From: a virus
Taxonomy: Duplodnaviria; Heunggongvirae; Uroviricota; Caudoviricetes
Strand: one strand, 5' to 3'
Virus record (IMG/VR): IMGVR_UViG_3300028886_000053
DNA length: 64,000 nt
Position numbers and translations under genes: made by a program. Of this stretch, positions 37,301-64,000 are shown piece after piece. Position 1 is the first letter of the stretch, and each line of letters starts with the position of its first letter. The notes below the pieces were generated by a model, which searched no databases, was not told the origin of the DNA, and saw only the letters and a list, made by a program, of their open reading frames with translations.

Positions 37301-37304
37301 TTTT

Positions 37305-40823: not shown

Positions 40824-42044
40824 ATGCAAGAAAAAGAAGATAACGTTATTCCTACTGAAGATGACGCTGTAGATACACAAGAGTTAAAACTTGATTATAC
40901 GATCTAGTCACCAGTGGAACGTAATGAATTAGTAAAAAAGATTGTAGAATCCTTACCTCCCTAGAAGTTAACGAATAGATACTTAGAAATATTAGCGGAT
41001 TATATTATATTTGCAAAAACGAAAGAATAGAGAAAAAAACAAGAGTCTATTAATACTGAAAATAGAATGATAACAATAAATAAACGGTAGACTTCATTTT
41101 AGGGACTAGTAGGAAAATTTGAAAATGGAGAAGATGGAGTATATAACTTATTTACAGAAGATAAGAACATTATCTTTACTCCAAAGATTTCAATTACAGA
41201 AGAAGATTTGGCGGAGATTCCAGCCTTACGAGAATTACGTGCAGCTATTGAAGAGGTTTAGAAACTTTAGAAAACAGCTCGTGGTAAACGTAAATATCTT
41301 CTTAAAAAACAAATTATTTAGATGCGGCAAGATCAGTATGTTATTAAAACTTCTTATAAACAACCGATCTTTTGTCTTAATGCCGTAAAAAATTTCAGTT
41401 CAATGAGTTTTGAAGATAACATTTCTATATCTCCAGATGGAAAAATAAAAGATAAGAGTTTAATATCTTTTATAAATCCTAAACATATCTCTGCTCTATT
41501 GAGAAATTATTCCCGATTAAAAGAAGATTGTTATGGAAAATTTTATACTGATGGATATTATATGATGGAAGTTTTAGATGAATTAGTGGACAAAGCTTTA
41601 AAAGAAAAATATCCTCTTTATTATAGTTTATTGATATATAAAATAGATGGGAAGTCTAATTTAGAAATTCAAAAACTATTAGAAGAAGAACATGGAATAA
41701 GACATTCAGTTGAATATATTTCTTCTCTTTGGCGAAATAAAATTCCAAAATTAATTGCAGAACAGGCCGAAATTGATTTTTTACATTGGTATTATTTAGA
41801 AAAAGAAAAAGGGAAATGGAAAAAATGTTCTCGATGTGGAGAAGTAAAATTAGCGCATAATAAATTTTTTTCTAAAAATAATTCTAGCAAAGATGGATTT
41901 TATTCAATCTGTAAATAGTGCAGAAATAAAAAGAAACGCATAACTCCTAAACCAGAAATTATAAAATATAGAGAAATTGAAAACGGAGTTGTAGTAAAGG
42001 AGGAGATATGGCGAAAAAGAAATGTAGCAAATGTTAGCGAGTAA
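40824..42044 (+). CDS. hypothetical late protein, TAG-recoded (about 9 in-frame TAG), C-terminal CxxC...CxxC zinc ribbon, ends TAA
   Basis: Single frame from ATG 40824 (frame 0) through standard-code fragment 41322..41918 to TAA at 42042-44. The C-terminus is CSRCGEVKLAHNKFFSKNNSSKDGFYSICK-Q-CRNKKKR. Confidence 0.5.
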
Positions 42045-43225
42045 TGGAGGATTTAAAATTTTATTCTAAAAAAAACGGAGATAAATTTGATATGTGCAAG
42101 TAGTGTTTAACTATGCACGTTGATAATTATAATGAAGATACTTTTTTATGGATAATAGAATAGGCAGATCTTCCTTGGGTACCTAGCGAATGGAACGCTA
42201 TTAGATAGAAATAGTATGCCAAAAAAGGCAGAAAAATGAATGGAATGAGTGTTGTCGGAAAATATTTTTCCAAAATGAGGTTAAATCAATGGAAGAAATA
42301 TAATTGGGCAACGAGTGCGGAAGCACAAGAGGAAGCTAATCTTAACAAGTAGTTTAAAGAAGAGCAACAAAAACAATTAGAGTAGAAGTTAAAAGAAGAT
42401 TTTGAAAAGGGTTAGATTACTTAGTCACAATATCGAACTTTAGTTTCTTCTAGTTTTCAGAAGTAGCATTAGTATATGATGCGGCCGGCCGGTTAGGAAG
42501 AGGACCCGGTTGGTAAAGATAATGCCTTTAGATAGGAATATTTCTTATCGGAAGAGGATTTACCCGATCCCGCAGCTGAATTAACAAAAGAAGATAAACA
42601 ATATTTGGCAATGAAATGGGGTCGAAATTATAAACCTAGTCAATGGTTATTGCTTGAAACCAAGTACACCGAAATGATGAATTCATTTGACATTCAGGAT
42701 GCAGATAGTAAAAATACATTAATGTTTATTTGTAAAACATATTTAAAAATGGATGAAGCAATTGATATAGGTGACGTTGAAAGTTATCAAAAACTATCCC
42801 GTGTCTATGATCAGTTACGTAAGTCTATGAAAGTAACGGCCGCGCAAAAGAAAGAAGAGAATAATTAGTTTATAGATTCAGTTGGCTAGTTAGTTGCCTT
42901 TTGTTAGAAACATGGACATGTGATACCTGAATTTTAGATAAAAGCTCCTCATGATATAGTTGATAAAGTCATAAATGATATGAAGGGTTATAATAGATCT
43001 TTGATTTATGAAGACAAAGCCCTTGCTAGACAAATCGAAGATTATATTAAAGAAGCGCGTGCGGCAGCTGCTAGAAAGAAAGACCGAGAATAGGCTAAGA
43101 AGAGAGGCTAGGATTATTATACAATTACAGATAAAGATATTTTAGATTATAAAGACTTCCTTCATAGTGAAAAAATATGGACAGAAAAAGAAATGAAGGG
43201 AGAGGATAACAATGAGTCTTAGTAA
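42008..43225 (+). CDS. late protein with N-terminal zinc ribbon, TAG-recoded (about 19 in-frame TAG). Possible terminase small subunit by position.
   Basis: ATG 42008 (SD AAGGAGGAG), MAKKKCSKC-Q-RVMEDL...DMCK-Q-CLTMHVD. The frame includes fragment 42605..42868 and ends TAG-TAA at 43220-25. It immediately precedes terL. Confidence 0.4.
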
Positions 43226-43560
43226 TATTTTAGATCAATATATTTAGCATGACACTAAAAAACAAGGTTTATCTGAAGAAAGGCTTCTTGATCAATTAGA
43301 CAATCTAAGATATTTAATTAGTTTTTTTAGAAAATATCCTGACCTTTTGGTAGACTATATGAAAGGACCAGATAGTACCTTCCATTTTTATTTTTATCAA
43401 AGAGTTTTCCTTAGAATAGTTATGCGGCACCGATACGTTTATGCAACGTTTCCGCGTGCTTACTCTAAATCATTTTTGTCAATGATGGCATTAATGTTGA
43501 GATGTATATTATATCCTGGGGCGCAATTATTTGTTACTACTGGTGGTAAAAGTATTATTT
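43212..43560 (+). CDS. terL: terminase large subunit, exon 1 (ATPase N-terminus with P-loop-like ATFPRAYSKS)
   Basis: Frame from ATG 43212 includes fragment 43347..43565 (MKGPDSTFHFYFYQRVF...ATFPRAYSKSFLSMMALM...VTTGG). The exon end is approximate. Confidence 0.55.
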
Positions 43561-44597
43561 TATAATTTTATAAAAAAGGGAGGAGCATTATGAGTGCAAA
43601 AAACGTCCTATATAATTTTGAAACGATTGATACAGAGGAAAAAGCTTATTGGTTAGGTTTTTTATATGCAGATGGTTCAGTTGGGTCTAAAGATGACCGA
43701 ATTGAATTAGGTTTAGCAGAAAGAGATTTTCATCATATTGAAAAATTTAGAGATTTTATTGGTATAAATAATAAAATTTCTTATCGAGAAAAAACAAAAT
43801 CATATCGTTACGCTTTTAAAAGTCAAAATTGTAAACAAGATTTAATTAGACAAGGATGTGTTCCTAAAAAATCTTTAGTTTTAAAATATCCTACTTATGA
43901 GCAAGTTCCTAAAGAATTAAGTAGACATTTTATTAGAGGGTATTTTGATGGAGATGGATGGTTTACAAACACAGAATCTTGTTTTCAAGTGGGAATTATT
44001 GGAACAGAAGATTTTATTAGGGGATTCCTTAATAATATAGATGATATAAATAAAGATAATAAAATATTTATTTGTCATCGAGAAGAAGGAGCTAAAAGAT
44101 ATGTTTTTGGAGCTTATCAAGATGTTTTAAATTTTTTAAATTGGATTTATCAAGATGCAACAATTTATCTTGATAGAAAATATGAACATTATTTAGATTT
44201 TATAAATAATGGAAGTAAATATCATAAAAATATAAAATAAAATTTGCCGTATAATATAGAAATATATTATATGATTATCGCGGAATTAAGCGGGAAGGCT
44301 GAAATGCTAATCTGAACCGAAGGCTAGTTAAAAAACTGGTCAGGGGCAACGCGTAGGAGGTGAAAAGATATAATCCTCCCAAGAGGCCGCGACACAAAGA
44401 TTTATAGAATCTTTTGAGATTATCTCACCAATAATCAAACCTAACGTTAAAACGAGGGTGAAAATGTACGCTGAGCTTACATGAATTAAAAAATGTAAGA
44501 ATTAAAGGATAAAAAACCTTTAAGATAACAAAACTGAAATAGCAGGCGGCTAGTATTACCGTGGCAAAGATAGAATAGATATGTAAGTTAATACCAG
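43561..44597 (+). other. group I intron 1 in terL carrying a LAGLIDADG homing endonuclease ORF
   Basis: An intact standard-code ORF is followed by a GC-rich structured core (gggaaggctgaaatgc...gtcaggggcaacgcgtaggagg) in an AT-rich gene. The terL frame resumes at about 44598. Confidence 0.5.
43590..44240 (+). CDS. LAGLIDADG homing endonuclease (two-motif, intron-encoded)
   Basis: ORF track, 216 aa. Motifs LGFLYADGSV and FIRGYFDGDGWF. No TAG. Confidence 0.75.
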   Translation: MSAKNVLYNFETIDTEEKAYWLGFLYADGSVGSKDDRIELGLAERDFHHIEKFRDFIGINNKISYREKTKSYRYAFKSQNCKQDLIRQGCVPKKSLVLKYPTYEQVPKELSRHFIRGYFDGDGWFTNTESCFQVGIIGTEDFIRGFLNNIDDINKDNKIFICHREEGAKRYVFGAYQDVLNFLNWIYQDATIYLDRKYEHYLDFINNGSKYHKNIK

Positions 44598-44880
44598 CTT
44601 TAAGTAATTAGATAAACTGGAATCGTGGTGTATCTAAAAAATCTAAGGATGATGTTAATTATGTATTTAAAAATGGTTCCGTTATAAATATCTTGGCTGC
44701 TAAAGAAAGCAGTAGAGGACAAAGACGTACTGGTGGATTAATGGAAGAATGTGTTTTAATTGACCAGACGGCTTTAAACGAAATTATTATTCCTACTACA
44801 AACGTAGATAGATTACTACCAGATGGAACACGACATAAAGAATAGATTATTAATAAGTCACAGATTTACATTAACTTTTT
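44598..44880 (+). CDS. terL: terminase large subunit, exon 2
   Basis: Frame reads ...VFKNGSVINILAAKESSRGQRRTGGLMEECVLIDQTALNEIIIPTTNVDRLLPDGTRHKE-Q-IINKSQIYINFFEQS with one TAG. Boundaries approximate. Confidence 0.45.
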
Positions 44881-45949
44881 TGAACAAAGCGTTATAAAAA
44901 TATGTGCTTAAAAATTATATATAATAGAACAAAAAAAGGAGGTTCTATTATGTATTATATTTATAAAATAGAAAATTTACAAAATCATAAAAAATATATT
45001 GGATTAACTAATAATATAGCAAGAAGAAGAGCTAGACATTTTACTGATTTAAGATGTAATCGACATGATAATGGTTTTCTTCAAAAAGAATTTAATATTT
45101 ATGGAGAAAATAATTTTTCTTTTGAAAAAATTTTTGAAGGAGATATTACAGAAAAAGAAATAGGAGAGAAAGAAAAAGAGTTTATTAAATTATATGATAG
45201 TTATAGAAATGGGTATAATCAAAATGAAGGTGGAAATTTTGGACCGTCTAATGGTGGAAGTCATTTAACGCAATCGGATATTTATAATATTTGTTCTGCA
45301 TTAGAATTTTGTTCTAGACCAGGAGGCGTGCTATCAGATATGTTTGAAGTTTCTTTAACTACTATTTCTAGAATAAAACAAGAAGTAAACCATAATCAAT
45401 ATATAAATGAATATAAAAATATGTCTTTAGAAGATCGAAAAGCTATATATAAAATATTTTGTGAAAGTTCTAATTTTTATGAAAAGAAAATTAAACAAAC
45501 TATTATAAAGTCTAAAAGACAGCTTACGAAACAGCAGGTTTTTATGATTTTATATAATTTTGAAAATAAAGTTGTTACTTACAAAAAAATGGCAGAAATT
45601 GTTGGAGTAGCAAGCACATATACTTTAGATTGTATAAAAAAAGGATTAACCTATAAAGATTATTCTTATGAATATAATCAACTTAATAACGAAGAAAAAC
45701 AAAAAATAGTGTCGTTATTCAGTAATGAATAATTGTAAGCCATTGAATTGCTGGGAACCCCTTATTAAAAGGGCAATCAGCAGCCAAGCTCTTTATAAGA
45801 GAAGGTTCAACGACTATCCTGAAAGGGAGTACACTCAAGCGAGTGGAAGCGGTGGCCCCCTACTTGAAAAAGAGGGTGAAGATATAGTCTACTCTGCATG
45901 TATATATAAAGATGCAGCAGTTCATAAGAGAACGCATATAGTTTAGCGA
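44881..45949 (+). other. group I intron 2 in terL carrying a GIY-YIG homing endonuclease ORF
   Basis: A HEG ORF is followed by a structured segment (gggaaccccttattaaaagggc...gagtggaagcggtggccccc). The terL frame resumes near 45950. Confidence 0.45.
44950..45732 (+). CDS. GIY-YIG homing endonuclease (intron-encoded)
   Basis: ORF track 44902..45732. The likely start is ATG 44950 after SD AAAGGAGG. Motif YYIYKIENLQNHKKYIGLTNN...R...H...E. No TAG. Confidence 0.7.
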   Translation: MYYIYKIENLQNHKKYIGLTNNIARRRARHFTDLRCNRHDNGFLQKEFNIYGENNFSFEKIFEGDITEKEIGEKEKEFIKLYDSYRNGYNQNEGGNFGPSNGGSHLTQSDIYNICSALEFCSRPGGVLSDMFEVSLTTISRIKQEVNHNQYINEYKNMSLEDRKAIYKIFCESSNFYEKKIKQTIIKSKRQLTKQQVFMILYNFENKVVTYKKMAEIVGVASTYTLDCIKKGLTYKDYSYEYNQLNNEEKQKIVSLFSNE

Positions 45950-47030
45950 ACTATATGGAATACAAGGAACAACGGCGGGTTGGAAGAATTCATTTGCGTA
46001 TGACAAATTAATAGAACTTTTAATTAGAAGTTTAATATAGCCTGATGAAGTTATGATAATGGGAGGAACTTATGAGACTCCTATTATTGAAGGATTGTTA
46101 AATGAAGACTTTGTATAGCAGTTAAAAATGGCTGGCACTTTCAATGAAGATTCATTTGATAGATAGTATAGAAGTATATGGTCGGGCGATGCAGAAAATG
46201 CGTTCTTCTCTGCCTAGAAATTTGACAAGTATAGAACACTTAGACAACCGTAGTACGAATATAGCGGCCGCACCAGTAAAAATGCTTACTATGTCATTGG
46301 AGTTGATGTAGGTCGTATTGGATGTACAACCTAGGCCTGTATTTTTAAGGTGACGCCGCAACCTCAAGGAGTTGCATTGAAGTCTCTTGTAAATATATAT
46401 ACTTATGAGGCATAGCATTTTGAATAGCAAGCTATAAATATTAAGCAACTGTTTTATAGATATAAAGCTAGATCAATTGCATTAGATACTAATGGTCTTG
46501 GAATAGGTCTTTTAGACTTTATGGTAAAGGCCCAGGAGACACCAGATGGATAGTATCTTCCACCTTTTGGTATTTAGAATGATGATTAGGGTATTTATAA
46601 GAAATATTTTAAAGGTGTAACAGATGTTCAAAAAGATGCTATTTTCCAAATTAAAGCTAATGCTCCTATTAATACATAGGCATATTCATTTGCTCAGACT
46701 CAAATGTCAAGTGGGAAGATTAAATTTTTAATTGATGAAGCAGAAGCAAAAGCTAAGTTAATGGAAACTAAACAAGGTCAAAACATGACGCCTGATAAGA
46801 GAAATGAGTATTTGAAGCCTTTTGTTCTTACTACTATTTTAAGAGAACAAACATTGAATCTCGTTGAAGATAACGAAGGTGTTAATATTATTTTAAAACA
46901 AGAGAATAGAGGTATTAAAAAGGATAAATTCTCTTCTTTTGTTTATGGATTATATTATATTAAACAATAGGAAGATAGAAGAAAAAAGAGAAAAGGAAGA
47001 GATATTAGTAAACTTCTCTTATTTTCTTGA
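45950..47030 (+). CDS. terL: terminase large subunit, exon 3 (RNase H-like nuclease domain), about 14 in-frame TAG
   Basis: Frame contains YYVIGVDVGRIG, DTNGLGIGLLD and KFLIDEAEAKAKLMETK, and includes fragment 46704..46970. If the TAG at 46968 is read as sense, the protein ends at TGA 47028-30. Confidence 0.55.
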
Positions 47031-47475: not shown

Positions 47476-49134
47476 GTGACTTCTTTGATAAATAGAGCAG
47501 CAGAAATAAGAAAACAAAATTTAATGCTAGAAGGCACCGGCAATGGGAGATTAGATTATTCAAAAATAAGAGTTGGAGCTAAAACACTTGAAGATGCAAT
47601 TTTAAATATTGGAGAATATAAAAGAATCAATCCTATTCTTGGTGATAAAAAAGAAGTATTAATGGCGATTAATACTGGTGATGTAGAAAGAATGAGATAG
47701 ATTTCTAATTTCTTTTATAAGACTAGTGGTATCTATGCTAGATTATGTAGATATATGGCATATTTATATAAATATGATTGGTTTATTACTCCATATATTG
47801 AAAATTGTGAAGGTTTACTTGATCAGGATAGCGGCCTGGGTGACGTCGGGGCAGGCTAGACTTAGGCAGATAATAAAGCCCGCAAAAAACAATTTGCTAA
47901 TTTCTTTAAAGTATTAAAATATTTTGAAGCATTTTAGGTAAAAAGATTTTGTGGTGAAGTTGCTCTAAAAGTCATCAGACATGGTTGTTACTATGGATAT
48001 TTAATTCCTAGACCAAATAAAATGACTATTCAAGAGTTGCCTATTAGATACTGTCGTACTCGTTATAAGGTTGACAATAGACCAGTTGTTTAGTTTAATA
48101 TGCACTATTTTGATGATCATTTCCATGATGAGAGACAGCGGCAAGCAATTTTAAAATTGTTCCCGCCAGAGTTTAAAAAGGGATATAATTTATATCGTAA
48201 AGGTAAATTAATGCCAACTTTTCCTGGTGATACTCCAGGATGGTATTTATTAGACCCTAAGAGTACAATTAAATTTAATCTTAATGATTAGGATTATCCA
48301 GCTTTTATTTCTGTTATCCCTGCTATTATCGACTTAGATAATGCTAAAGATTTAGATAGAAAGAAAATGGCTCAAAAGTTAATGAAAATTATTATTCAAA
48401 AAATGCCATTAGATAAAAATGGTGATTTAGTATTTGATATTGATGAAGTTGGAGAATTTCATAATAATGCAGTTAAAATGCTTACAAGAGCGATAGGAGT
48501 AGATGTTTTAACTACTTTTGCGGACGTTGATGTCGCTGATATGTCAGATCGAGGTACTACAACTACTGTAGATGAATTAGCAAAGGTAGAAAGAGGAGTT
48601 TATAATGAAGCTGGTGTTTCACAGCAACAATTTAATAGTGATAATAATACTGCTTTAAATAATTCTATTCTTAATGATGAAGCATCTATGTATAATCTTT
48701 TAGTACAATTTGAGTCGTTTTTAAATTTAATGCTTGAACAATTTAACAAATCTCCAAAGAAATGTTATTATCAAGCACAGTTTTTAACAACTACTATCTA
48801 TAATTATAAAGATTTAGCAAAGTTGTATAAAGAACAGGCGCAAATGGGATACAACAAAATGTTACCTCAGGTAGCACTTGGACAAACTCAAAGCTCAGTA
48901 TTAGCTAATGCGTACTTTGAAAATGATATATTAGATCTTGTCCGTGTATTTGTTCCTCCGCTTACTTCTAATACAATGAACGCTGAAGCACTACAAGCGC
49001 GGTCTGCGGCTACACGCGGAGGCTCGGGTCAAGCGGGAAATACTCCAGGTCAATCTGGAGAAGGGGCCGGCCGCCCTTAGAAATAGGATAATCAAAAAAG
49101 TGAAAAAACATTACAGAATAGAGAAAGTATGTAA
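47476..49134 (+). CDS. portal protein, TAG-recoded (about 8 in-frame TAG), GTG start, ends TAA
   Basis: One frame links fragments 47476..47700, 48100..48291 and 48367..49080, then continues through two TAGs to TAA 49132-34. Its position between terL and the scaffold/capsid genes supports the call. Confidence 0.55.
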
Positions 49135-49145: not shown

Positions 49146-50534
49146 ATGAGTTTAGCGCATAAAAGTGTAGCGACGATAAAAAGTCCAGAGTTCATTAATC
49201 TTACTCCTCTTGATATTAATCCCTTAATGTCCGCATGTGAAATTAAAGTTTTTTATATTGGACAAAACCGTAATAAGAGTTTTATTTCTAAATAGGTTGC
49301 TACTTAGATGGCAAAGACTCTTAGAGGTGCTCCTATTGTTGGGTATTATAAACCAGATAAAGAGGATTTTACAGATCATGGTGAAGAAATAACGATTGAT
49401 GGGGATGGTGTTCATTTTAAAAATAACACTAAGCCATATGGATTTGTAGCTCCAGATGCGAAAGTCTGGTTTAAAGATTTTGAAGAGGAAGATGATTTTG
49501 GAAATTCCATAATTAGAACTTATCTAATGACCACTGGATATTTGTGGGAAGGTCAATTTGAAGAAGCTAAAAAAGTTTTTGAAGATGATGGAAAACCTCA
49601 TTCAATGGAATTAGATGAAAAAAGTTTAAAAGGACATTGGGCAACAAACCCAAATAATAATATGGAATTTTTTATAATTAATGACGCAATATTTGAGAAA
49701 CTCTGTATTTTAGGAGATGAGGTTGAACCTTGTTTCTAGGGTAGTGGTGTAACTGCTCCAGAGGTTAGTACAACCTTTTCTCTTGATGATAATTTTAAGC
49801 ATACTCTGTTCACTATGATGGAAGAATTAAAGTATGCTTTAGAAGGAGGCAATACTATGGCAAAAGTAGCTGAAGCTTCAGTAAATGAGACTGTTACTAC
49901 TATAGAACCTGAAGTAACAACAGAATTTACTGAGAATCAAGTTAATGAGAATGAGTCTTCATCTAGTGAGCAAGCGCCTGCTTCAGAATTTAAAAAGGAT
50001 GATGAAGAGGACAAAAAAGAAAAAGAAAATCCTTCTGAAAATGAGGATGATAAGAAGGATGAAGACAATGGCGGAGGTGCTTCTGATTCAGATGATGACT
50101 CTGCTAATGAAGAAAAGAAAGATGAAGAAGATAAGAAGAAGAAATTCACTGTCCTTGAACAGGAATATAATGAGTTGCAAACTAGTTATACTTCTTTGAA
50201 GGAAGAAGTTGAAGAACTAAGAACTTTCAAGAAAAAAATAGAGGACAAAGAGAAGGACGACCTTATTAAAGATTTCTATATGCTTTCTGATGAAGATAAG
50301 AAAGATGTTATTGAACATAAGAGTGAATATTCATTAGAAGATATTAAATCTAAATTAGCAGTGATTTGCTTTGAAAAGAAGGTCAATTTTAATTTAGACA
50401 CTTCTTCTGAAAATGAAGAATCAACAGTAGAAGAGGATGAAAATCCTGTTACTACTTTTGATATTAAGGCAACTGAAGATTCAACAGTTCCTGAATGGGT
50501 TAAGGCGGTTGAATCTGCAATGAATAGATATTAA
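49146..50534 (+). CDS. probable prohead protease/scaffolding protein (single frame, 3 in-frame TAG). The acidic C-terminal half is scaffold-like.
   Basis: Strong SD AAGGGGG before ATG 49146. The frame joins fragments 49308..49739 and 49815..50534. The C-terminal 240 aa is D/E/K-rich and coiled-coil. It could alternatively be two genes. Confidence 0.4.
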
Positions 50535-50551: not shown

Positions 50552-51172
50552 ATGGCAAAAGAAAGAATCGGCTATGGACAAGTAGAACGCCAACACATGG
50601 CTGCTCCACATAACGGTCAAATCTATGCTCAACTTCCTGCTCTTAATGCTAACGGTACTCCAATCGCTCAGCTTGAGAATGGACAGTTTTTAAAATATGA
50701 TTATGCAAATGGTAAGGCTGGAGTTGGAACATCTGGTGATGGCAAAGAATGGTTCCTTGTTTATAATGAAGAAAAGTTATATGACGAGAGATACCAAAAT
50801 CATAAAGATTTTGCTATGAAGGCAGCAGATATGTCTGATGGTACTATCTATCCTAGACTTTTAAGAACCTTTGTTGGTGATATTTTCACAACAAATACTT
50901 TTAAGGGTCCTAAGGGTACTGTAACAGATAAAGAAGGTAAGATTGATGATATTCCGGATCTTGCTATTGGTGATTATGTAGTAATTGGTGATGATGGTTG
51001 GTTAGTAAAAGGTACGGGTACAGGAACTGATGGAGTAAATCCTCCAACTGGTACTGGTATTGTTTTCCAGGTTATTCCTCATTTTACACAAATGGGTATG
51101 GCGGCTGCTGATAGACCAGCTTATACATTACCTGATGGACAATGGGCTGTGAAGCTTCAAAGAATACGCTGA
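50552..51172 (+). CDS. head decoration / minor capsid protein (no TAG)
   Basis: ORF track, 206 aa. SD AGGAGG. Immediately upstream of the major capsid protein. Confidence 0.4.
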   Translation: MAKERIGYGQVERQHMAAPHNGQIYAQLPALNANGTPIAQLENGQFLKYDYANGKAGVGTSGDGKEWFLVYNEEKLYDERYQNHKDFAMKAADMSDGTIYPRLLRTFVGDIFTTNTFKGPKGTVTDKEGKIDDIPDLAIGDYVVIGDDGWLVKGTGTGTDGVNPPTGTGIVFQVIPHFTQMGMAAADRPAYTLPDGQWAVKLQRIR

Positions 51173-51188
51173 TAAGGAGGAAATAACG

Positions 51189-52307
51189 ATGGCTTTAGAT
51201 AGAAATCAACTTTTAGCATTAGCTAAGGCTACTGCACGTGCTTCATTAAATCCTTCAACTGCGTTCGCTTGGGGCGATAAGAAATTAACATTTGAAGCTC
51301 TTAATGAAGTTTTTCAAAAAGAAATGAATGAACTTGCTGGTACATACGCTTTGTACCGTGAGAATAAGAATACAATTTTCAGACTGATTGAAGAAGGTCT
51401 TGATGAAATCCTTCCTGCAAAGGTTATGCAGAATTATGGTCAGTTTGCTGATACTAAGACCTATGCACAAGGTGACAAGCCTGTGTTCCGTGTAAGAGTT
51501 AGTGAATACTCTAAGAAGAGAGCAAAGAGCTTTGTAACAAGAGTAGGTCTTGCTGGTAGATATGAGACATTCAAGCTTGATGGATACACAATGGAAGTCA
51601 ACATGGCTGCATACGGCGGAGCAGCTGAAATCGGCTTTGAGGAATTCCTTGATGGCCGTATTACAATGGCTGATGTTTATAATTTAGTTCTTGAAGGTCT
51701 TGATGAAGTAGTTTATAAAGAAATTGCTAAGGCAATGGAATCATTAGCAGACAGTACAAGTATTCCTAAAGCTAATAAGGTTAAGGGAAATAAATGGAAT
51801 GAAACTGAATTTGACCGTTTAGTTGCTACTGCTGATGTTTATGGCAAGAGTACAATTTATTGTACTTATGAGTTTGCAGCAACTATTCGCCCTGCAAATT
51901 CTGGTGACCTTTCTGATGGTATGAAGGAAGATTTATGGAATAATGGTTCTTTCAAGAACTATAAGGGACATACTATTATTGTTCTTCCTCAGAGCTTTGA
52001 GGATGCTAATAACTTAGTCAAAGTTATGGACCCTTCCATTGCTTGGATTATTCCTACTGGAGCAGAAAAACCTGTTAAGGTTGCTTTCGAAGGAAGCTCT
52101 GCTGTTAGAGAAGTGGAGAATGATGATTGGTCAAGAGAAATCCAGACTTATAAGAAAATGGGAGTTGCAGTTTATAATATAAATCCTGGTATTTGCGTAT
52201 TTAAGAATACTTCTCTTACAAAGGATAATTTACCTAGACTTACTGGCGCTAATGCTGCAACTTTTGATGCAAATACAAATTGGTACACACTTCCTGACAA
52301 TTATTAA
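51189..52307 (+). CDS. major capsid protein (HK97-fold-like), no TAG codons
   Basis: ORF track, 372 aa. SD AAGGAGG. Sits between scaffold and head-tail genes and is followed by a strong terminator. Confidence 0.65.
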   Translation: MALDRNQLLALAKATARASLNPSTAFAWGDKKLTFEALNEVFQKEMNELAGTYALYRENKNTIFRLIEEGLDEILPAKVMQNYGQFADTKTYAQGDKPVFRVRVSEYSKKRAKSFVTRVGLAGRYETFKLDGYTMEVNMAAYGGAAEIGFEEFLDGRITMADVYNLVLEGLDEVVYKEIAKAMESLADSTSIPKANKVKGNKWNETEFDRLVATADVYGKSTIYCTYEFAATIRPANSGDLSDGMKEDLWNNGSFKNYKGHTIIVLPQSFEDANNLVKVMDPSIAWIIPTGAEKPVKVAFEGSSAVREVENDDWSREIQTYKKMGVAVYNINPGICVFKNTSLTKDNLPRLTGANAATFDANTNWYTLPDNY

Positions 52308-52967: not shown

Positions 52968-52983
52968 ATAAATTAGGAGGTGT

Positions 52984-53538: not shown

Positions 53539-53849
53539 CTTTAGGTATTTCTATTAGCAAGAGCGCAATAGATAATAATTTAAAAAGAATTATAAATCAA
53601 GTTTATAAATTACTTCCTTTAAGAGAAGAAGGAAAAAATTGGGAAAAACCGTTAGAAACTTTAATCGAGGAACTTGCGGGAATGGCTGATTTAATAGATG
53701 GCTAGGAAGAATTATTCTTTTCTATATTATGTAAAATGAAAGGATTGCTTAGTTTAGCTAGTGAACTTGATATGGTTACTTATCGAAGAACTATATTAGA
53801 ACTTCTAAGTTTACTAAGTGAGTTAAAAAGATATGTCTGCTAGAGATAA
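53520..53849 (+). CDS. hypothetical neck protein (2 TAG), ends TAA
   Basis: Frame 0 from ATG 53520 to TAA 53847-49. Confidence 0.35.
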
Positions 53850-53850
53850 T

Positions 53851-55137
53851 ATGCGGAAACGGTATCGGGCCGATTTAAATAAAAATCCTAGCCATTCATA
53901 TGATTTCGGTTCCGGTTTAGATAAAATGAGTAAACGGTTAAGTGTTTTTGGTGGTGAAGACCAATGGACGAGAATGAGATAGGATAAACTAAGAAGTTTG
54001 AAAAAAGCTTTATTAGCATCTTATCAAAGAGCAATCGTTCAAAAATATGATGTTAAAAAAGATAGTTTAGCAAATAATATTATTTCTATTATTACTTTAC
54101 TCCAAGATAATCAAGAGTTAAGTGATAATCAGAATAATATTTTAAAAACATTAGAAGATTAGTATACGAGTTTAGCTGTTATAGATGATAAATATTCAGC
54201 TAGGTATATTCAGAGCTTAGAAGAAATTGTTGATTCTCTTACTTCCACCGCTCCTATGTTTAAAGCTCTGATTAATCATGATAAATTAAAAGTGGATTAT
54301 GAAGATAAGATCCTTTCGATCCCCTTTAGGGAAGCACCGGAAGATAGTGAAGAATAGATAGATACTGATTTTCATAATGGGACTGTCTTTAAATGGGTCC
54401 ATGGTAATAAAGAAGAATGGACGCCAGACACATATTGGATTGTCTATATGCAGTATTCTGAAGAAACTGCTTATTTTAGAGCGGAAATTCGCAAAGCCGA
54501 TGAATAGATTTAGATTATTGTTATAGACGAAGATGGTAATGAAAATGCAGTTAGTTATAGAGGATGGATGACGGGACCAAATGAAACTACAGCTCTTTGG
54601 AATACAAAGCGTGGTGTTGTTTGGAACGATATGAATTATACCAAGTTATTATATATAACAAAAGATGAAGATACTTTAGCATATTTTCAACGCTTTGATA
54701 GGATAATAATTAATGGTAAACCCTGGGAAGTGCAAGCCTATAATGAAAATTATAGTACTAGTAAAACAGGGGATTTTAGTTCAGGTATTATAAGAGTGGC
54801 GTTAAAAGAAACATATACTTCTGCGGATCAGTTCGTTAAGGAAGTGAAAAATGCGGAAGCCGCTCAGATCTAGGCGGAGGCTGCCTATGATGCAGAACAT
54901 ACCTAGGCTAGAATTGATGGACCGGCCGCCGCACATCCTTACGATATATTAATATATAAAGCTAAAAATTATGAATAGCCGCAAGACTGGTTCGTTTCTG
55001 ATACCTCTCTTGTTAAAGTATTAGAGTATAATGAAGATACTTTAAAACTTGAGGTTATTGCTAAAAAGGCTAATAAAGAAGGTTTCCAAATTGGATATGG
55101 ATAGAATATTATTCAGATTCCTATTGAGCCTCTATGA
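53851..55137 (+). CDS. virion morphogenesis protein (about 429 codons, about 9 in-frame TAG), ends TGA
   Basis: Frame 1 from ATG 53851 includes fragment 54568..54873 and ends TGA 55135-37. Confidence 0.4.
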
Positions 55138-55154
55138 GATAAAAGGAGTTTATT

Positions 55155-55798
55155 ATGCGTTATGATTTAATTTCAACAAAAAAGATATTTTCTCCCTTTT
55201 TCTCTTGTCCATAGGACATTAATAAATTTTTAGAAACACTTTTTATAAAGAACCGTCCTTATAGTAATATATTGAAGCGGTTGTTAATAATTAATTCTCC
55301 CGATTGTTTAGATCCGGCAAAGGATGAAGAGTACAATGCTATTGTTGATAAGTATACAGTAAAAAGGATGATCGAAGAAGGATATATTCGATTAAATCCT
55401 AAAATTGCTCGTGGAACGCATGAAGAAATTAAAAGTTATATTATTATAACTCAAGATAACTTTTCTCAAAATAGACGTTCTTCACAATATCGAGATTATA
55501 TAATTAATATGGATATTGTTTGTTATAATGATGCATGGGTATTAAATGAATTAAAAGTTCGTCCTTTAATGATATGTGGGTATATCGACGGTATTTTAAA
55601 TAGTCTTTCTGATGAAACTAAAGATTCTTCTAAAACATTACCATCAAGAATTAAATTAACTGGTATTGGTTATTATAAATTCTTAGGATGTAATCTTGTA
55701 GTTTTGAACGAAGATATTTCAATGTATACGCTATCTTATTTGGGATAGCATTTTACAGAAGACTTGGGAGAAGAACAGGTTGATTGAGAAAATTGCTT
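55155..55798 (+). CDS. hypothetical tail/neck protein (SD AAAAGGAG, 2 TAG)
   Basis: Frame 0 from ATG 55155 joins fragment 55272..55748 and continues to TGA near 55796. Confidence 0.4.
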
Positions 55799-56561
55799 TA
55801 TTATCAAAACGAGATATACCCTATGAAGCAGCGTAGCTTATTATTCATCAACCTACTATAAAGTAGATTTCTTATATTGGAGAAAATAATTTTTTTAAAG
55901 GATGTCAATATTTGAATTTTTCTAAAAATAGTCTTTAGGTAAAGGACAAAATTAATTTAGAAAAAGTTTCAGATTTTGAAATATTAATGACGATATTAAA
56001 GAATAAAGATTCAAATATTTAGGAAGCTAAAATTTGTTTACAAGAAGTTTTTTTATTAATACTTCCAGATTATAAAGTAGTTTTTCTCCCTACTTGTATA
56101 TTATTTTCACGTAAAACCTAGGATGGTTTTGAAGAACATTCTTTAACGAAAGAAAATTTCGAGGGTTTTAAAAATATTGTGTCAGAAATGTTTTGTTTGA
56201 AATATATACAGGGTGAGAGTGGACAAGGCGGTTATAATCCTGGAGGACCTCAGGCACGAGCATTAGTAAAGAAATTTCAAGAAAGACAGGCTAAATTAGC
56301 TAAACTAAAAGGAAAGACTGATAAGACTTCTATTGAAGTTTTATATCGTTATATTTCTGTGTTGGCAGTAGGTTAGCATAAAGATATAAATTAGTTAATG
56401 AATTATTCTTTATATCAATTAGTAGATTAGTTTCGGCGTTTTAAAATGGCAGATGATTATGAAACTGTTTTTAGATTAAAATTAGCTGGAGCTAAAGATG
56501 TTGAATCCGTCCCTCATTGGATGGGTGATTTAGATGACAAATTATAAGGAGGATACACACA

Positions 56562-57578: not shown

Positions 57579-57597
57579 TGAATGAAATGAATTAAAT

Positions 57598-57631
57598 GGG
57601 AAGGAAATGAATATTTCCTTCCCATTTTTTG
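57598..57631 (+). terminator. rho-independent terminator after the tail tube gene
   Basis: Hairpin GGGAAGGAAA-TGAAT-ATTTCCTTCCC followed by ATTTTTTG. Confidence 0.6.
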
Positions 57632-57652: not shown

Positions 57653-58741
57653 ATGGCAAGTTATTGGAGACAATTATCGAATCAAAATTTAAGTTCATCT
57701 GAATATTTAGATAAAGAAATTCATTCTACAATAATAAATAAATTTGGAGGACAAACTAATAAAGACTGGAGTCAAGAAGAAAAACGAGCCAAATAGTTAG
57801 AAAAATATTTATATTAGATAAAAAATTATTTAAATGATGATTCTAAAGAGAATGTTTTTACAGCAAATGAAAAACAATTATTAAGAAATAATTTAGACTC
57901 TCAATTAAAAAATTTTTTAAAAACTTCAGGAGGAACAACTTTTGAAAAAGAATTAGTTGATTTAAATTTAGCTTTAATAAAAATTTTTACTTCAGAAACA
58001 ATTGATATAGAAGCAAAAACTTATTAGATTTGGACAGGTTCACAATTAAATAAAGCTATAGAGAATTTGGGAAAAGATGTAGTAAAAGCTTTTGGAATAA
58101 AAACTTATAAATATATAGATAAAATGCACAAGGAAAAAGGAAAATCAGCTTATATTCAATCGACCCAAATAAAAATTGATTTAATAACGCAGGGTGTAGA
58201 AGTAGCCCAAAATATACAAGGAACTTCTCATTTACAAAAATTTTTTTAGTTATATGCTAATGCGAGTTTTTCTGCAAAAAATTATAATTTAACTAAAAGA
58301 AAAAGAGATATTTCTTTAGGAAGTACGTCATTAGGAAGAATATTTTTTGATTTTTTACCTTTTATAGACCCTATTTTTTCAAACTCTAATATAATTTCTT
58401 CTTTTGCTATTGCTTTAATGAATAGAAAAACAGGTATTAATTTATCAGAGCCTAAAGAAGCAGATGAAAGAATTGATATTCATTTAGACCATATTAGAGT
58501 AATATATTAGTTACAAGGATTAGGTCAATCAATTAATAATAAAAATAATAATGATATTCAATAGCTATAGCAATATATTAATAGAGGAGTAGATTTTTTA
58601 ATTATTAATGATTTTGGAAGTGATATAATTCAAGTGGAGAGTACTAGAGCATTGTTGGCAAAATTTTTAGAAGAGGAAAAAAATAATATTTTTAAAATGA
58701 GAAATGTTCAAAATTTAAGACATACAGAATTTAAAATTTGA
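57653..58741 (+). CDS. hypothetical tail protein, TAG-recoded (about 8 TAG), ends TGA
   Basis: Frame from ATG 57653 includes fragment 58067..58249 and ends TGA 58739-41. Confidence 0.4.
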
Positions 58742-58797
58742 CAAAATCTAAAATTTATGTTATAATAAAAATAAGAGTTAAAAAGGAGGTATGACAT

Positions 58798-59340
58798 ATG
58801 TTATACAAAGATTTAAATTTAAAAGTAAAAGACCAAATTGAAACCATTTCAATTCAAGGACAAGATATAAATATACTTCAATATCTTCCAGTCCGTGATA
58901 AAAATGACTTAGTTCAAATTGCACTTCAAAATTCAAGAGAGAATGGGGTTATAAATGAAATTAAACTTGAAATATATTTTAATATTTATATCGTTTATTT
59001 TTATACCGATCTTGTTTTTAGTGAGGAAGAAAAAGCGGACCCCGGTCAATTATACGACGAACTCTAGAGTAATGGTATTTTAACTAGAATTCTTGGAGCA
59101 ATGAATTAGGACGAATATAATAATCTCGTAGATTATTTAGAAAAAATGAGAGCGGCTCAAGATGCTTATGAGAATAGTGCGGCAGGTGTTATTAAGATGT
59201 TTATCTAGGATCTTCCGAAGAATGCAACGGAGGCCGCAGATTTATTAAAGAATGTAGATTTAAGTAAATATGAGTAGGTTAATAAATTTGCTGAAGCTGC
59301 TAATGGTGGTAGACCTGTTCCTACTCTTGTTGAGAATTAA
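58798..59340 (+). CDS. tail assembly chaperone (gpG-like), 4 TAG, ends TAA
   Basis: ORF track 58798..59067 (EEEKADPGQLYDEL) continues through TAGs to TAA 59338-40. It sits directly upstream of the tape measure gene. Confidence 0.45.
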
Positions 59341-59367
59341 AAATTCGGACTAAAATGATTAATTTAT

Positions 59368-59413
59368 AGTGCCTTCTTTATAATAATATATAAAGAAGGC
59401 ACTATTTTTTATT
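59368..59413 (+). terminator. hairpin plus T-run between chaperone and tape-measure genes
   Basis: AGTGCCTTCTTTATA...TATAAAGAAGGCACT followed by ATTTTTTATTTT. Confidence 0.5.
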
Positions 59414-59430
59414 TTAAAAATAAAGGAGGG

Positions 59431-62400
59431 ATGAAGATGCCTAGTTCAAGAAATGGTGGAAATATAGAATTTGGAGTTAGTTTTAAAACAGATTCCAGTT
59501 TAGATAAATTAAAAAAATCTCTTCAAGATTTACAAAAAGTAAAATTAGGAGATTTTAAAGGGTCTGCTGATGATTTAGATAGAGTTAAAGAAACTGCTCA
59601 AAAAGTAGAATCTATTTTAAGTAGAGCTTTTAATCCAACTCTTAATACTACAAATATTTCTACTTTTAATAATGAATTAAAGAAATCTAATTTAACTGTT
59701 GAACAGATTAAATCAGACTTTTCTCAATTTGGTAAAGAAGGATAGTTAGCATTTTCAAGAATGGCTTCTTCTTTATTAACTACTAATCTAAAATTAAAAT
59801 AGACAAATAGTTTAATAGATAGTATGGGTAAAACCATGGTTAATACCGTGAAGTGGGGAATTGCTTCAAGTGTTATGAATACTTTTACCCAAAGTGTACA
59901 AGGCGCTTTTCAATATGTACAAAGTTTAGAAAAATCTTTAACAAATATTAGAATTGTTACAGGTGATTCTACAGAAAAAATGGCTCAATTTGCAGAACAG
60001 GCTAATCGTTCTGCTCAAGCATTAGGACGTAGTACGTTAGATTATACAAAAGCGTCATTAACATTTTATCAACAAGGTTTAAATGACGAGGATGTCCAAG
60101 CTAGAACTGAAGCTACTTTAAAGGCACAAAATATTACAGGTGCAGGTAGTTAGATGGCAGATTATTTAACATCTGTGTGGAATGGTTATAAAGTAGCAAA
60201 TGAAGAAGCTGAATTATATGTTGATAAACTCGCGGCAGTTGCTGACTCTAGTGCATCTGATATGAGTTAGTTAGCTATTGCTATGTCTAAAGTTGCATCA
60301 ACTGCTAATACAATGGGTGTTGATATAGATCAATTAAATGCTCAAATTGCTACTGTTGTTGCTACGACAAGACAAGCTCCTGAATCAGTTGGTACTGCAT
60401 TTAAAACCATTTATACTCGTATGAATGATATTAAAACCGGCGCTGATGATGCAGAGGTTAGTCTTGGTAAATATTCAGGAACAATGGCTTCACTCGGTTT
60501 TAACGTATTGGATGCAACCGGTCATCTTAGAGACACTGGCTAGGTTATGGAAGAAATAGGTGGTCGTTGGCAAGATTTGACTAGAGAGCAACAGATTTAT
60601 CTTGCTCAAACTATGGGTGGTCAAAGACAAGTCAACCAATTAATGGCTTTGTTTGATAACTGGACTACTTATAGTGAATTATTAAATACTTCATTAGAAT
60701 CTGAAGGAACTCTTGCTGAGAAAAATGCTCGTTATATGGAATCTCTTGGTGCTAAGATGGAACAATTAGGAGCAGCAGGAGAAAGAGTGAAAGATAGTTT
60801 AATAGATACTGATTCTATGAAGGGAATTGTAGATATTTTAACTAATGTTACTAATTTAGTTGCTACATTATTTGAGAGTATCGGTGGTGGAAATAATGTT
60901 CTTTTAGCTTTTGGAAGTGTTGCAACTCAAGTTTTTGGAGGAACAATTTCTAAAGAAATTGCTCATATGATTGAAGGTTTTCAAAATGCCAAAGCTAATG
61001 CCGAAATTTTAAAAAATGATATTGCTTTAACAAAAACTTTTGAGAATTCTCAAGGTGAAAACACTAAGGGATTGCAATTTGTTCAAGAAAATATAAAAGA
61101 ATTACAAAAATATTATTCTATATTAGATGAATCTGCTATTAATGAACAAAAAAATATAATTGATAGAATTGGTGTTTTAAAAGATGAACAAACTCAATTA
61201 CAATAGAATCAAGATGCTGTAAGAGAATATGCCGAAAGAATAGGAGAAGTAGAGGAGTCTCAAGCTACTTTTAATGATAGTTAGAATTTTTTAAATACTA
61301 ATACGGCGTTAGGAACTTTAGTTGATAACGCAAAAATTTTAAAAGAACAATATGATATTCTTAAAAATTCTGGTTTTACAAATGATGAAGAATTAGAAAA
61401 ATTTAAGACTCATTTTGAAGAATTATTAAATGATTCTGAAAATTTGGGTATTAATGTAGATAAAGTTCGCCAGGCTTTTAATTCAGGAAATTGGGCAGAA
61501 ATAGGTGTTTCTAAGGTTTTTGACGAAGCTATTCAAAAAGGAGAATTACTTTCTACTACTATTAATAAATCTGGAAGCGTTTTAGAAGATACTACTAACA
61601 AGATAAATAATTTAACATCAATAATGCAATCAAAACAGAATAGTTTTGAAACGTTATTTAATGTAAATAATGCTATAAAATTTGCTGCTACAGTAGGTCA
61701 AATTGGTAGTATTATGACTAGTATTACTAATTTAGGGAATATTATTAAAAATGAAGATTTATCAGCAAGTGAAAAATTAGCTAAAGTATTAACAAATATC
61801 GGTTTTCTTTTACCTATGATAATTAATACTTCTAAAAATATTTCTTCATTATTAGGTATTACAAATGCTTTAACTCAAAGAAGATTATTTTTAGAACAAA
61901 AAATTTCAAAAGAAAAAGAAAGACAGGCTTTGCTTGATAAAAAGGCTGAAATAGCAGAAAAAGCAAAAGTTTTATAGGCTTAGATAAAATCAGGAAAAGG
62001 AGATACTAATAAGGCTCTTTAGGAATTAAAAAATTTTAAAAATCAAGACCTTCATTTAGATGAACAACTTGAAAGTGTTGATAAATATCTTATTAGTATA
62101 AAAGATAAAGCTGATAATTTACCTAGTGCTATTTCTACAGCCTTTTCTGCCGCAGGTTCTTCAGTTTCAAGTTTTATTGGTATATTAGGTTCTGTAGCTG
62201 TACCTTTATTAGCTATTACAGCAGTAGTGACAGCAGGTTATGCAATATATAAAACATATAATCAAGCTGCAGATGCTGCGAAATAGGCTGCTGAAAATGC
62301 ACAGTCTGCCAAAAAACAATATGATGAAATGAAGGATAGTTTTAAAAACTTGACTTCTGCTATAGAAGATTATGATAATGCAAAAAAAGCTCTCTCTGAA

Positions 62401-64000
62401 TTAACAAAGGGTACCGAATAGTGGTATGATAAAGTTAATGAATTAAACGATAAGGTTTTATAGCTTATACAAAATTTTCCTGAATTAGCACAATATATTG
62501 AAACAGATGAAAATGGATTATTATATTTTAAAGAAAATGGCGAAGAAGAAATAAAGAAAATCTATCGACAAAGAGCTTATGTTTCTGGAATGGCAAATGC
62601 TAGTCTTCAAGAAAAAAGTTATTAGGCAGATAGAACAGCTAAAATTGTTGAATAGGGTCGTAAAATTTATGGCACTGGGGGAATGTTTGGCGGTCAAGAT
62701 ATTATGGAGGCAGTTGTTTCTGCCGTTCAAAAAAATGGGACAGCTATTTTAGCAGATGAAGATAAATTAAAAAAAGCTGTTGCAGATGAAGGAGTTGAAT
62801 TAAACCAAGACCAAATAGATGCTACTAGAGAAAATACTCAACAAATTAGAACTTTAGTTGATTCTTTAAATGCTGAAAAGACTGAAGTAAATGCTTTACG
62901 AGATAGTTTAATAAAAACAAATTTAAACAATGAAGAAGAATATCGTAATTCGACACATAAAGAGGCTTTTGCTAATATGGTTGCTGGACTTATTGAATAG
63001 GAAAGGCAAAATGGCTTAGATGAATTTTATAAAGAACAAGAAGTATCTTATGGATATGGAATGAATCAACAAAAAACAACCCAGCTTTTATTTGACCGTG
63101 ATGCTGCTATTAAAAAATACGAAGAATTAACAGGAAAAGAAGTTAAAGAAAAAAAAGGAAAATTTTCAGCAAGACAAGCTGGGACAAATGATTAGTTTGA
63201 AGAAATAAAATTTTCTGATATAACAAATTATTTAAGAGAAGCCAGTATTAATATGGAAAAAATCGTAGCTGATACTACAGAAAGAATGGCAGCTGCTTAG
63301 TAGAATTTTGCTAGTGTTAGTGATAGAGTAAAAGAGGTTCTATTTAATAGTGGTTTAGCGGGTGGTTTTGATAAAGTTAATACAAATTCTTTAAGTCAAG
63401 TAGATGTAAATAAATTAAAAGATTTAAATCCAAATGATTTAGCAGATTTCCTAGGAATAAAAGTTGAAGAAATTCCAGGTAAATTAAAAGAATTAGGAGC
63501 TAGTGTCCAAGAGGGCCTTGATAGTTTTATAAATGGTATCGAAGAAGGTAATACTCGTGCAGTAATGTTATAGCTAAAAGATAAATATGGATCAGATTTA
63601 TCGAGAGAATTAGCTGAAACTATTGCTCAAAATGTTCAAAACGGTTATCAGAAAGTTGGAACTGAAAGCGGAAATGCTATTAGAGATTTCTATAAAAAGC
63701 TATCTGGTGATCAAGTTGATGATATTACTAAATTAGCAGAAGAATATAATTATGCTGGGAATTCTGTAGAAGACTTTATAAAAGCTGTTCGAGAAACTGG
63801 AGTTACTTCAGAAAAAATTTCTGATGACATGGTAAAGGCTTTTTATGATGCTCAATTAAAAATTCAAGATATTCAAACAAAAGAATATAAAACGGATTTT
63901 GATAAAGTAAATCAAGCTAATTCAACAAGTTCCCTAGGAACTCAATTAAATGCAGGTGAAAAGTTAAGCGATAAAGAATTAGTATCTTATAAAGAAGGTC
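59431..64000 (+). CDS. tail tape measure protein (partial, runs off the window), many in-frame TAG
   Basis: SD AAAGGAGGG. Long alpha-helical low-complexity frame linking fragments 59431.., 59824.., 60283.., 60547.., 61444.. and 62683.. across TAG codons. Confidence 0.55.

Follow-up and report, generated by a model that had tools for sequence, protein, structure and literature searches.

Why would a phage that uses a reassigned stop codon throughout its late genes keep that codon out of a few of them? A 64,000-nucleotide stretch of viral DNA (IMG/VR record IMGVR_UViG_3300028886_000053, Caudoviricetes), hereafter called the window, raises this question: TAG is found within the reading frames of most genes of its plus-strand late operon (40824..64000), and is absent from those for the major capsid protein, the tail tube and a putative decoration protein. 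We report that this avoidance is repeated in related recoded phages, that TAG in the clade of the window appears to encode glutamate (Glu) and not glutamine (Gln), and that the avoidance is best explained by translational selection against an inefficient sense codon.

Distribution of TAG in the late operon

Genes were called with only TAA and TGA as stops, which gave 95 genes in the window (G+C content 34%). The late operon comprises 22 open reading frames (ORFs), whose products include a sigma-like factor, a split terminase, portal, scaffold, capsid, neck proteins, tail tube and tape measure, and it holds 118 in-frame TAGs spread over 17 genes (1-20 each). Five late genes are TAG-free, namely two endonuclease genes, 43590..44240 and 44950..45732, and the genes of the capsid, tube and putative decoration protein, which are listed here with the neighbouring scaffold gene:

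49146..50534, plus strand: scaffold-like protein (YonD_N family, precomputed Pfam name on an orthologue) with an acidic C-terminal half
50552..51172, plus strand: putative decoration or auxiliary capsid protein, 0 TAGs (assigned by position and codon bias)
51189..52307, plus strand: major capsid protein (YonB family, precomputed Pfam PF27364), 0 TAGs among 28 Glu codons
56562..57578, plus strand: tail tube (YomU_Tube family, precomputed Pfam PF27173; phrog_2729, virion structural), 0 TAGs among 15 Glu codons

TAG was treated first as Gln (NCBI genetic code 15) and later, after the alignments described below, as Glu, with the same result for avoidance. Set against Gln codons, TAG amounted to 0/28 in the capsid, tube and decoration genes versus 118/354 in the other late genes (Fisher p=2.5e-5), and within the Glu family to 0/51 versus 118/599 (p=3.6e-5); in most late genes ~20% of the Glu codons are thus TAG. 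In the scaffold gene 3 of the 69 Glu codons are TAG, all of them at codons 49, 53 and 197, and the acidic half (codons 199-462) has TAG at 0 of 48 Glu codons (P=8e-6). The recount thus bears out the first-pass annotation, made from the letters alone, according to which the capsid, tube and decoration genes and the acidic scaffold region are TAG-free amid TAG-rich late genes. The name decoration protein, also taken from there, is putative: the gene does contain no TAG, and its identity is suggested by its place between scaffold and capsid and by its capsid-like codon bias, functional annotation searches having given no match for it. Since the shortest four late genes (109-119 amino acids) all contain TAG and those without it span 206-372 amino acids, the TAG-free genes are not simply the shortest ones, and gene length does not explain the pattern. 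The position of TAG along genes had no significant 5' or 3' bias (Kolmogorov-Smirnov p=0.06), and the base following TAG did not differ from that following GAA or GAG (p=0.22).

TAG avoidance in related phages

Relatives were gathered in two scans of IMG/VR, the capsid protein serving as query in the first and an alignment of it in the second; these gave 91 loci, and an assembly look-up added two. For each locus, TAG-sense frames were called, orthologues were identified by BLASTP and codons were counted within the aligned regions. About 39 dereplicated loci had no in-frame TAG and were classed as standard-code, and 28 dereplicated loci were recoded; in a capsid neighbour-joining tree the latter formed ~10 lineages interspersed with standard-code ones. 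The proportion TAG/(TAG+CAA+CAG), pooled over the recoded loci, was 0.011 in decoration, 0.017 in capsid, 0.024 in tube and 0.12 in gp52411 genes, versus 0.25-0.49 in every other family. Measured against Gln codons, the depletion was significant in each lineage, with a combined p=5e-21 for the lineages other than that of the window. A few recoded loci carry one or two TAGs in the capsid or tube gene; the avoidance is strong but not absolute.

Turnover of TAG was followed in the window's clade (17 sequences). The portal alignment had 39 TAG columns, one of which was fixed, while the capsid had two, the tube two and the decoration protein one, all rare. TAG emerges in the capsid, tube and decoration genes but fails to persist there. 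The comparison with related recoded phages that the first-pass annotation had proposed clearly shows that the avoidance seen in the window is real and generalises.

Amino acid encoded by TAG

The late proteins of the window, with TAG translated as X, were aligned to 38 dereplicated standard-code orthologue sets. Late orthologues align across the TAG positions, and the conserved late genes are full-length only with TAG as sense. In the 82 usable TAG columns the orthologues had E at a frequency of 0.44, D at 0.09, K at 0.08 and Q at 0.06, a profile indistinguishable from that of GAA/GAG columns (E 0.47, D 0.12, K 0.075, Q 0.063) and unlike that of CAA/CAG columns (E 0.10, K 0.06, Q 0.47). An empirical log-likelihood of the meaning of TAG, built on the window's own sense codons, was -181 for E, -231 for D and -233 for Q, and the same calculation inferred nine of nine control codons correctly. 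Conservation reached 80% or more in 18 TAG columns; 17 of these were Glu, ten of the 17 being invariant. In the terminase alignment, for instance, DRXYRSIWSGDAENAF of the window corresponds to DREYRSIWSGDAENAF in the orthologues, QPXYEYS to QPEYEYS and NTXAYS to NTEAYS. The Glu content of the late genes is 8.1% without TAG and 10.0% with it; that of the early genes is 9.9%. The alignments thus indicate that TAG is glutamate in the clade of the window. Genetic code 15 was ruled out for the window by the Glu-like TAG columns. The first-pass annotation had not noticed that TAG is not glutamine here.

The same procedure gave Glu for the window's clade and for the single-locus lineage L017, and Gln for locus L054 and for seven loci of a second large recoded clade; the result for phage phAss-1 was also Gln, albeit weak (7 columns), in line with the published assignment. 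For locus L070 (IMGVR_UViG_3300009871_000027) it gave tryptophan (Trp), with eight conserved Trp columns and a log-likelihood of -21.9 for W versus -48.2 for Y. In this 12.5-kb locus RSIXSGS, for example, stands opposite RSIWSGD, and TAG accounts for 21 of the 28 Trp codons of the non-abundant late genes and for 0 of 6 in the capsid, decoration and tube genes. One SPbeta-like family has, as judged from these alignments, reassigned TAG to three amino acids, Glu, Gln and Trp, which implies no fewer than three independent reassignments. Under each of the three meanings TAG is avoided in the capsid, decoration and tube genes; for lineage L017 this was only marginal (p=0.07) when TAG was counted within the Glu family.

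Suppressor tRNA

The minus strand of the window encodes an array of more than 24 tRNAs, together with a transfer-messenger RNA (tmRNA) and a ROOL RNA. Three tRNAs bear on the decoding of TAG:

1721..1793, minus strand: suppressor tRNA with anticodon CUA (ARAGORN and Rfam)
7242..7315, minus strand: tRNA-Glu(UUC), missed by ARAGORN (Rfam; anticodon read from the alignment)
8101..8174: tRNA-Glu(CUC) (ARAGORN)

The suppressor has a tRNA-Glu-type body, with a 3-bp D stem GTC/GAC, a 4-nt variable loop, C1-G72 and A73. A scan of one genome per prokaryotic species for the motif of its D-arm, GTCAAGCGGTT(N)AAGACA, gave at least 120 matches; among the 120 matches listed nearly all lay in Bacillota genomes, and ARAGORN assigned 108 to tRNA-Glu and a single one to tRNA-Gln. 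Over its whole length the suppressor is ~70% identical to Bacillota tRNA-Glu. A single change would suffice on either side, CUC to CUA in the anticodon and GAG to TAG in the codon. The exact pattern of the suppressor's D-arm and anticodon had no match in IMG/VR, and a relaxed pattern was found in five IMG/VR contigs. Three IMG/VR contigs encode a CUA tRNA that shares the D-arm of the suppressor and matches its anticodon arm exactly; in each it directly adjoins tRNA-Glu(UUC) and tRNA-Glu(CUC), which fits an origin by tRNA-Glu duplication. The Glu-type CUA tRNA of the tRNA-array contigs L217, L218 and L220 has G1-C72, and reading TAG as sense brings the ORF coverage of these contigs from 0.61-0.70 up to 0.79-0.82.

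By textbook identity rules, the suppressor would be charged by the glutamyl-tRNA synthetase of the host and, as it lacks U1-A72, would escape transamidation by GatCAB. The phage family and the tRNA-Glu body suggest a Bacillota host. In Bacillota hosts without glutaminyl-tRNA synthetase, the choice between Gln and Glu may depend on whether GatCAB transamidates the Glu-charged suppressor.

In the searchable literature, which covers few subscription journals, we found no report of TAG-to-Glu or TAG-to-Trp reassignment in a phage. On balance we hold it probable that the clade of the window has a phage code of which we found no description, TAG=Glu, by way of a tRNA-Glu-derived CUA suppressor, that the family has separately adopted Gln in several lineages and Trp in at least one, and that TAG is purged from capsid, decoration and tube genes whatever its meaning. 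If this is true, the avoidance would be a general cost signature of suppressor-based codes.

Further elements of the array were noted. The tmRNA (2279..2561, minus strand; Rfam 70 bits) has the tag peptide GGTENLYCD* according to ARAGORN, and may rescue ribosomes stalled or terminated at TAG. A full-length ROOL RNA (6109..6707, minus strand; Rfam RF03087, 297 bits) lies within the array, where an ORF listing would miscall a 126-amino-acid gene with four TAGs. ARAGORN also reported two odd minus-strand tRNAs, one with a four-base anticodon (tagg) at 528..600 and an 85-nt tRNA-Ala(AGC) at 11331..11415, and a tRNA-Ile(UAU), which reads ATA, is located at 11416..11489.

Codon bias and copy number

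The capsid, tube and decoration genes differ from the other late genes at many codons besides TAG: AAG is used at 65% versus 22%, TTC at 42% versus 14%, GGT at 63% versus 39%, CTT at 49% versus 18%, CCT at 83% versus 51% and ATA at 9% versus 32%, and AGG, CGA and CGG, which combined make up 19% of Arg codons elsewhere in the late genes, are missing from the three. In an unsupervised principal component (PC) analysis of codon use without Gln codons, the capsid, tube, scaffold and decoration genes were the top four late genes on PC2. The same bias separates the three genes from the others in recoded relatives (ATA 0.05 versus 0.29, TTC 0.40 versus 0.17, CAG 0.56 versus 0.20) and in standard-code relatives (ATA 0.06 versus 0.30, TTC 0.51 versus 0.19, CAG 0.48 versus 0.22), in the latter also family by family for CAG. 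Being shared by 28 recoded and 39 standard-code relatives, it is independent of the code and older than the recoding, and such a bias is the classical mark of genes selected for very high expression.

When the late genes were sorted into assumed copy-number classes, taken from canonical siphovirus stoichiometry, the TAG share of Glu codons fell with copy number (rho -0.76), from 0.29 in enzymes and regulators through 0.18 in low-copy virion proteins and 0.04 in the scaffold to 0 in the shell and tube proteins. Long hairpins directly after a gene are common for abundantly expressed phage genes, and two terminator-like hairpins were found in the operon:

52340..52380, plus strand: 19-bp stem followed by a T run, directly 3' of the capsid gene
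57594..57627, plus strand: 15-bp stem, directly 3' of the tube gene

Probable translational selection and alternative explanations

From these results, an explanation may be put forward to which we assign a probability of about 70%: TAG is the least efficient sense codon of the phage, and translational selection purges it from the proteins made in the highest copy number. The phage would read TAG as sense through its own tRNA(CUA), here a tRNA-Glu derivative, so that its decoding would rely on a single tRNA species, supplied by the phage, and in a standard-code host release factor 1 (RF1) would presumably be a competitor for the codon. These two handicaps together would make TAG the slowest and leakiest codon. 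Synonymous GAG-to-TAG changes would drift in and out of most late genes. In products needed at hundreds per virion, each TAG would lower the yield and generate truncated subunits, and selection would therefore clear TAG from the capsid, putative decoration and tube genes, less so from the scaffold gene. ATA, AGG, GGG and further poor codons would be lost from these genes under the same selection. The putative early genes would avoid TAG for the published reason, namely that they are translated before the suppressor is available. The codon distributions, the meaning of TAG, the kind of tRNA body, the codon bias that does not depend on the code and the turnover of TAG sites are results of the analysis, and competition with RF1, expression levels and tRNA charging are what we infer in this scheme. 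The suggestion of the first-pass annotation that limiting suppression tunes expression level finds support, as an effect of selection, in the copy-number gradient, the codon bias and the relatives.

Several points weigh against this explanation. The copy-number classes are an assumption and not measured abundance, and competition with RF1 is likewise assumed. The identity of the decoration protein and, in part, that of the tube follow from family names and synteny. The lineages were defined on a single-gene neighbour-joining tree, so that their independence is approximate. The correlation with Shine-Dalgarno strength, which the first-pass annotation had proposed, was absent (rho 0.25, p=0.30); canonical AGGAGG precedes all three TAG-free genes, but also many others.

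The late operon might instead be governed by a timing switch, whereby the late genes without TAG are translated ahead of any build-up of the suppressor tRNA, so that capsid, tube and decoration protein are made first. TAG gating of late genes is a published model (preprint 10.1101/2021.08.26.457843), and a perfect sigma-70 promoter before the first late gene makes early transcription by the host polymerase possible. The TAG-free genes, however, share transcription units with TAG-rich assembly partners (portal, 8 TAGs; scaffold, 3), the one or two TAGs tolerated in the capsid or tube genes of some relatives point to a graded cost and not to a switch, and timing gives no account of the bias at many other codons that is shared with standard-code relatives. 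We therefore consider such a switch unlikely, and with it the proposal of the first-pass annotation that suppression is timed. Slightly less credible still is a refinement of the explanation by selection, in which TAG is avoided not for the yield it costs but because RF1-terminated fragments of self-polymerising proteins would co-assemble and poison capsids and tubes: the three cleanest genes do all encode lattice- or tube-forming subunits, but the portal and the ring-forming connectors also oligomerise and yet hold 2-9 TAGs, and yield and speed are what the general codon optimisation of the three suggests.

The decoration, capsid and gp52411 genes form a mosaic block beside flanks of 95-100% identity, which could mean that the capsid module and the tube gene were recombined from standard-code relatives too recently to have gained TAG. 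We regard such an import as very improbable: the close capsid relatives (63-97% identity) are all recoded, with no standard-code one above 65% identity; other genes that have diverged this far carry ~20% TAG; the mosaic block does not include the tube gene; and the depletion recurs across ~10 lineages. Chance or amino-acid composition, for which it might be said that the capsid has only 7 Gln codons and the tube only 15 Glu codons, is refuted, as is gene length, by the recount, with the p values given above for the window and for the lineages other than its own and with TAG in all the shorter genes, and scarcely merits consideration. Translational selection against TAG was consequently retained as the best explanation.

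Organisation of the late operon

The remaining features of the late operon are as follows:

40824..42044, plus strand: sigma-factor-like protein with a C-terminal zinc ribbon, 9 TAGs (phrog_5767, E=2e-49)
42008..43225, plus strand: phrog_3314 protein of unknown function, 20 TAGs (36% of its Glu codons)
43212..47030, plus strand: large terminase in three pieces, 43212..43565, 44561..44911 and ~45912..47030, with 1, 3 and 14 TAGs (PHROG matches)
43590..44240, plus strand: LAGLIDADG homing endonuclease interrupting the terminase, TAG-free (PHROG match)
44950..45732, plus strand: GIY-YIG homing endonuclease interrupting the terminase, TAG-free (PHROG match)
45675..45910, plus strand: group I intron core in the terminase region (Rfam RF00028, 90 bits)
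47485..49134, plus strand: portal protein, 8 TAGs (phrog_2739, E=5e-74)
52411..56547, plus strand: six neck or connector genes with 2, 4, 2, 9, 2 and 8 TAGs (orthologues named YomW and YomV in Pfam)
57653..63999, plus strand: unknown 362-amino-acid protein (7 TAGs), YomO-like protein (4) and tape measure running off the window (20)

The structural order YonD_N, YonB, YomW, YomV, YomU_Tube, YomO is that of the SPbeta structural module. The Pfam names come precomputed on orthologues of 88-96% identity in a syntenic metagenomic locus; a local Pfam search matched none of the capsid, tube, decoration and scaffold proteins. In phAss-1 (OQ749652.1) the protein treated as the major capsid protein (PMC10607447) shares 48% identity with the capsid protein of the window, whose more distant relatives, found by tblastn, belong to Enterococcus EF1-like and SPbeta-like phages. 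An AlphaFold2 model of the capsid protein from a shallow alignment had a predicted local distance difference test score (pLDDT) of ~50, and its Foldseek matches were weak and non-significant, all of them to HK97-type capsids. For the tube, the best hits of sequence and profile searches against the PDB were weak matches to solved tail tube proteins (E=0.06); its AlphaFold2 model, also from a shallow alignment (pLDDT ~50), yielded nothing useful in Foldseek.

The two TAG-free endonucleases of the terminase region have an extreme composition, with a G+C content at third codon positions of 0.09, and both terminase inserts are missing from most relatives. One endonuclease is housed in a bona fide group I intron; the first insert (~43566..44560) was not recognised as an intron by Rfam. 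These genes are likely TAG-free through mobility and recent arrival, as sporadic mobile inserts, and not through their expression level.

Two plus-strand promoters match the sigma-70 consensus at 12/12 positions and have an extended -10 TG: one at 40762..40790, upstream of the sigma-like gene, which is the first of the late operon, and one at 58738..58766, upstream of the YomO-like gene. With nine TAGs in its gene, synthesis of the sigma-like regulator would depend on the suppressor. In the mosaic block (50552..52968), the decoration, capsid and gp52411 products are 65-92%, 86-90% and 62-85% identical to those of the closest relatives, while for the flanking portal, scaffold and neck genes of the same relatives the identity is 95-100%, a contrast suggestive of an exchange of modules or of diversifying selection at the surface of the capsid.

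TAG outside the late operon

The first-pass annotation had described nearly all minus-strand early genes as TAG-free, and had confined other TAG use to a plus-strand island and some endonuclease genes. The features concerned are these:

14724..40681, minus strand: putative early block of ~46 small genes, essentially TAG-free (1 TAG among 448 Glu-family codons)
19482..22041, plus strand: island with TAG-using genes (6, 0, 0, 6 and 4 TAGs, 16 in total; TAG-sense gene calls)
4773..5495, minus strand: GIY-YIG endonuclease in the tRNA region, uses TAG (annotation search)
12946..13806, minus strand: unannotated gene with 9 TAGs (gene calls)

The former statement holds for the block 14724..40681, whose early expression is putative and deduced from orientation and gene content, but not for the tRNA region (679..14653), the minus-strand genes of which hold 23 TAGs. 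The latter is correct as regards the island, whose proteins gave no informative PHROG match, and the GIY-YIG endonuclease; the unannotated gene at 12946..13806 does not fit it. The TAG-bearing genes of the tRNA region also include two phrog_5018 paralogues of unknown function, which may be endonuclease-like. In four minus-strand genes (13958..14653, 40268..40681, 12002..12181 and 3478..3768) the sole TAGs fall within the last 2-15 codons, for example at codons 221 and 226 of 231. Those four genes may really stop at TAG under the host code, with a short read-through extension in the presence of the suppressor.

Relation to known recoded phages and implications

With the recoded gut phages described earlier (Ivanova 2014; Borges; Peters PMC9523058) the window shares the in-frame TAGs of its structural genes, a phage-encoded tRNA(CUA) and putative early genes that lack TAG, and the early/late partition of TAG is an already published model. 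It differs from them in a depletion that lies within the late operon and tracks protein abundance, and in TAG apparently standing for Glu. Borges et al. proposed that selection enriches recoded stops in lysis genes or depletes them in integrases, and among phages with a code unlike that of the host their preprint has only TAG-to-Gln and TGA-to-Trp; capsid proteins get no mention in it (10.1101/2021.08.26.457843). The searchable literature, with the coverage stated above, gave no report of capsid-specific TAG avoidance either.

The nearest described system is phAss-1 (proposed Phassvirus), an SPbeta-like siphophage of ~136 kb with a large tRNA array and with TAG in the terminase, portal and tape measure genes; like the window, it has TAG-free capsid, decoration and tube genes. 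It was reported as TAG-to-Gln by Babkin et al. (2023, PMC10607447), who imply that its capsid gene lacks TAG and do not comment on the point. The three members of the proposed genus share 80-86% nucleotide identity (PMC10607447). A 10-kb structural region of the window had no megablast match in phAss-1 or the phage collection, which together with the capsid identity of 48% places the window outside Phassvirus. phAss-1 has three structurally different CUA tRNAs (L095 9446..9611 and L096 5748..5821) of 88, 72 and 74 nt, the 88-nt one with a long extra arm, and its TAG could possibly be decoded ambiguously or by several isoacceptor types.

Translational selection, as in the late genes and tRNA set of T4, confines abundant proteins of phages and bacteria to restricted, preferred codons and keeps rare ones out of their genes. 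Here, in contrast to the classical case, the avoided codon is a reassigned stop, and its cost probably includes premature termination besides slow decoding. UAG is read as Glu through a tRNA-Glu with a mutated anticodon in NCBI tables 30 (Peritrich) and 31 (Blastocrithidia); these codes belong to the nuclei of cellular organisms and reassign TAA as well, whereas the code of the window is phage-borne, concerns TAG only and presumably operates in a standard-code bacterium. Cook et al. could identify the capsid in 57% of predicted table-15 phages under table 11 and in 66% under table 15, figures that hint at widespread TAG-poor capsid genes.

The most surprising result lies outside the original claim, namely that TAG appears to be Glu by virtue of a tRNA-Glu-derived suppressor, with Gln and Trp in sister lineages. 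Blanket annotation with table 15 can accordingly be wrong: it would mistranslate TAG as Gln in place of Glu, even at invariant terminase residues, and in one sister lineage would write Gln where Trp is meant. The avoidance itself provides a replicated, quantitative readout of the cost of a reassigned stop, which low-copy proteins tolerate at ~20-40% of their synonymous sites and those of the highest copy number at ~1-2%, and this readout constrains models of recoding as a pure timing switch. With three apparent meanings of TAG, the SPbeta-like recoded family would be a natural system in which to follow how a single anticodon change turns tRNA-Glu, tRNA-Gln or tRNA-Trp into a suppressor, and it may supply orthogonal suppressor tRNAs.

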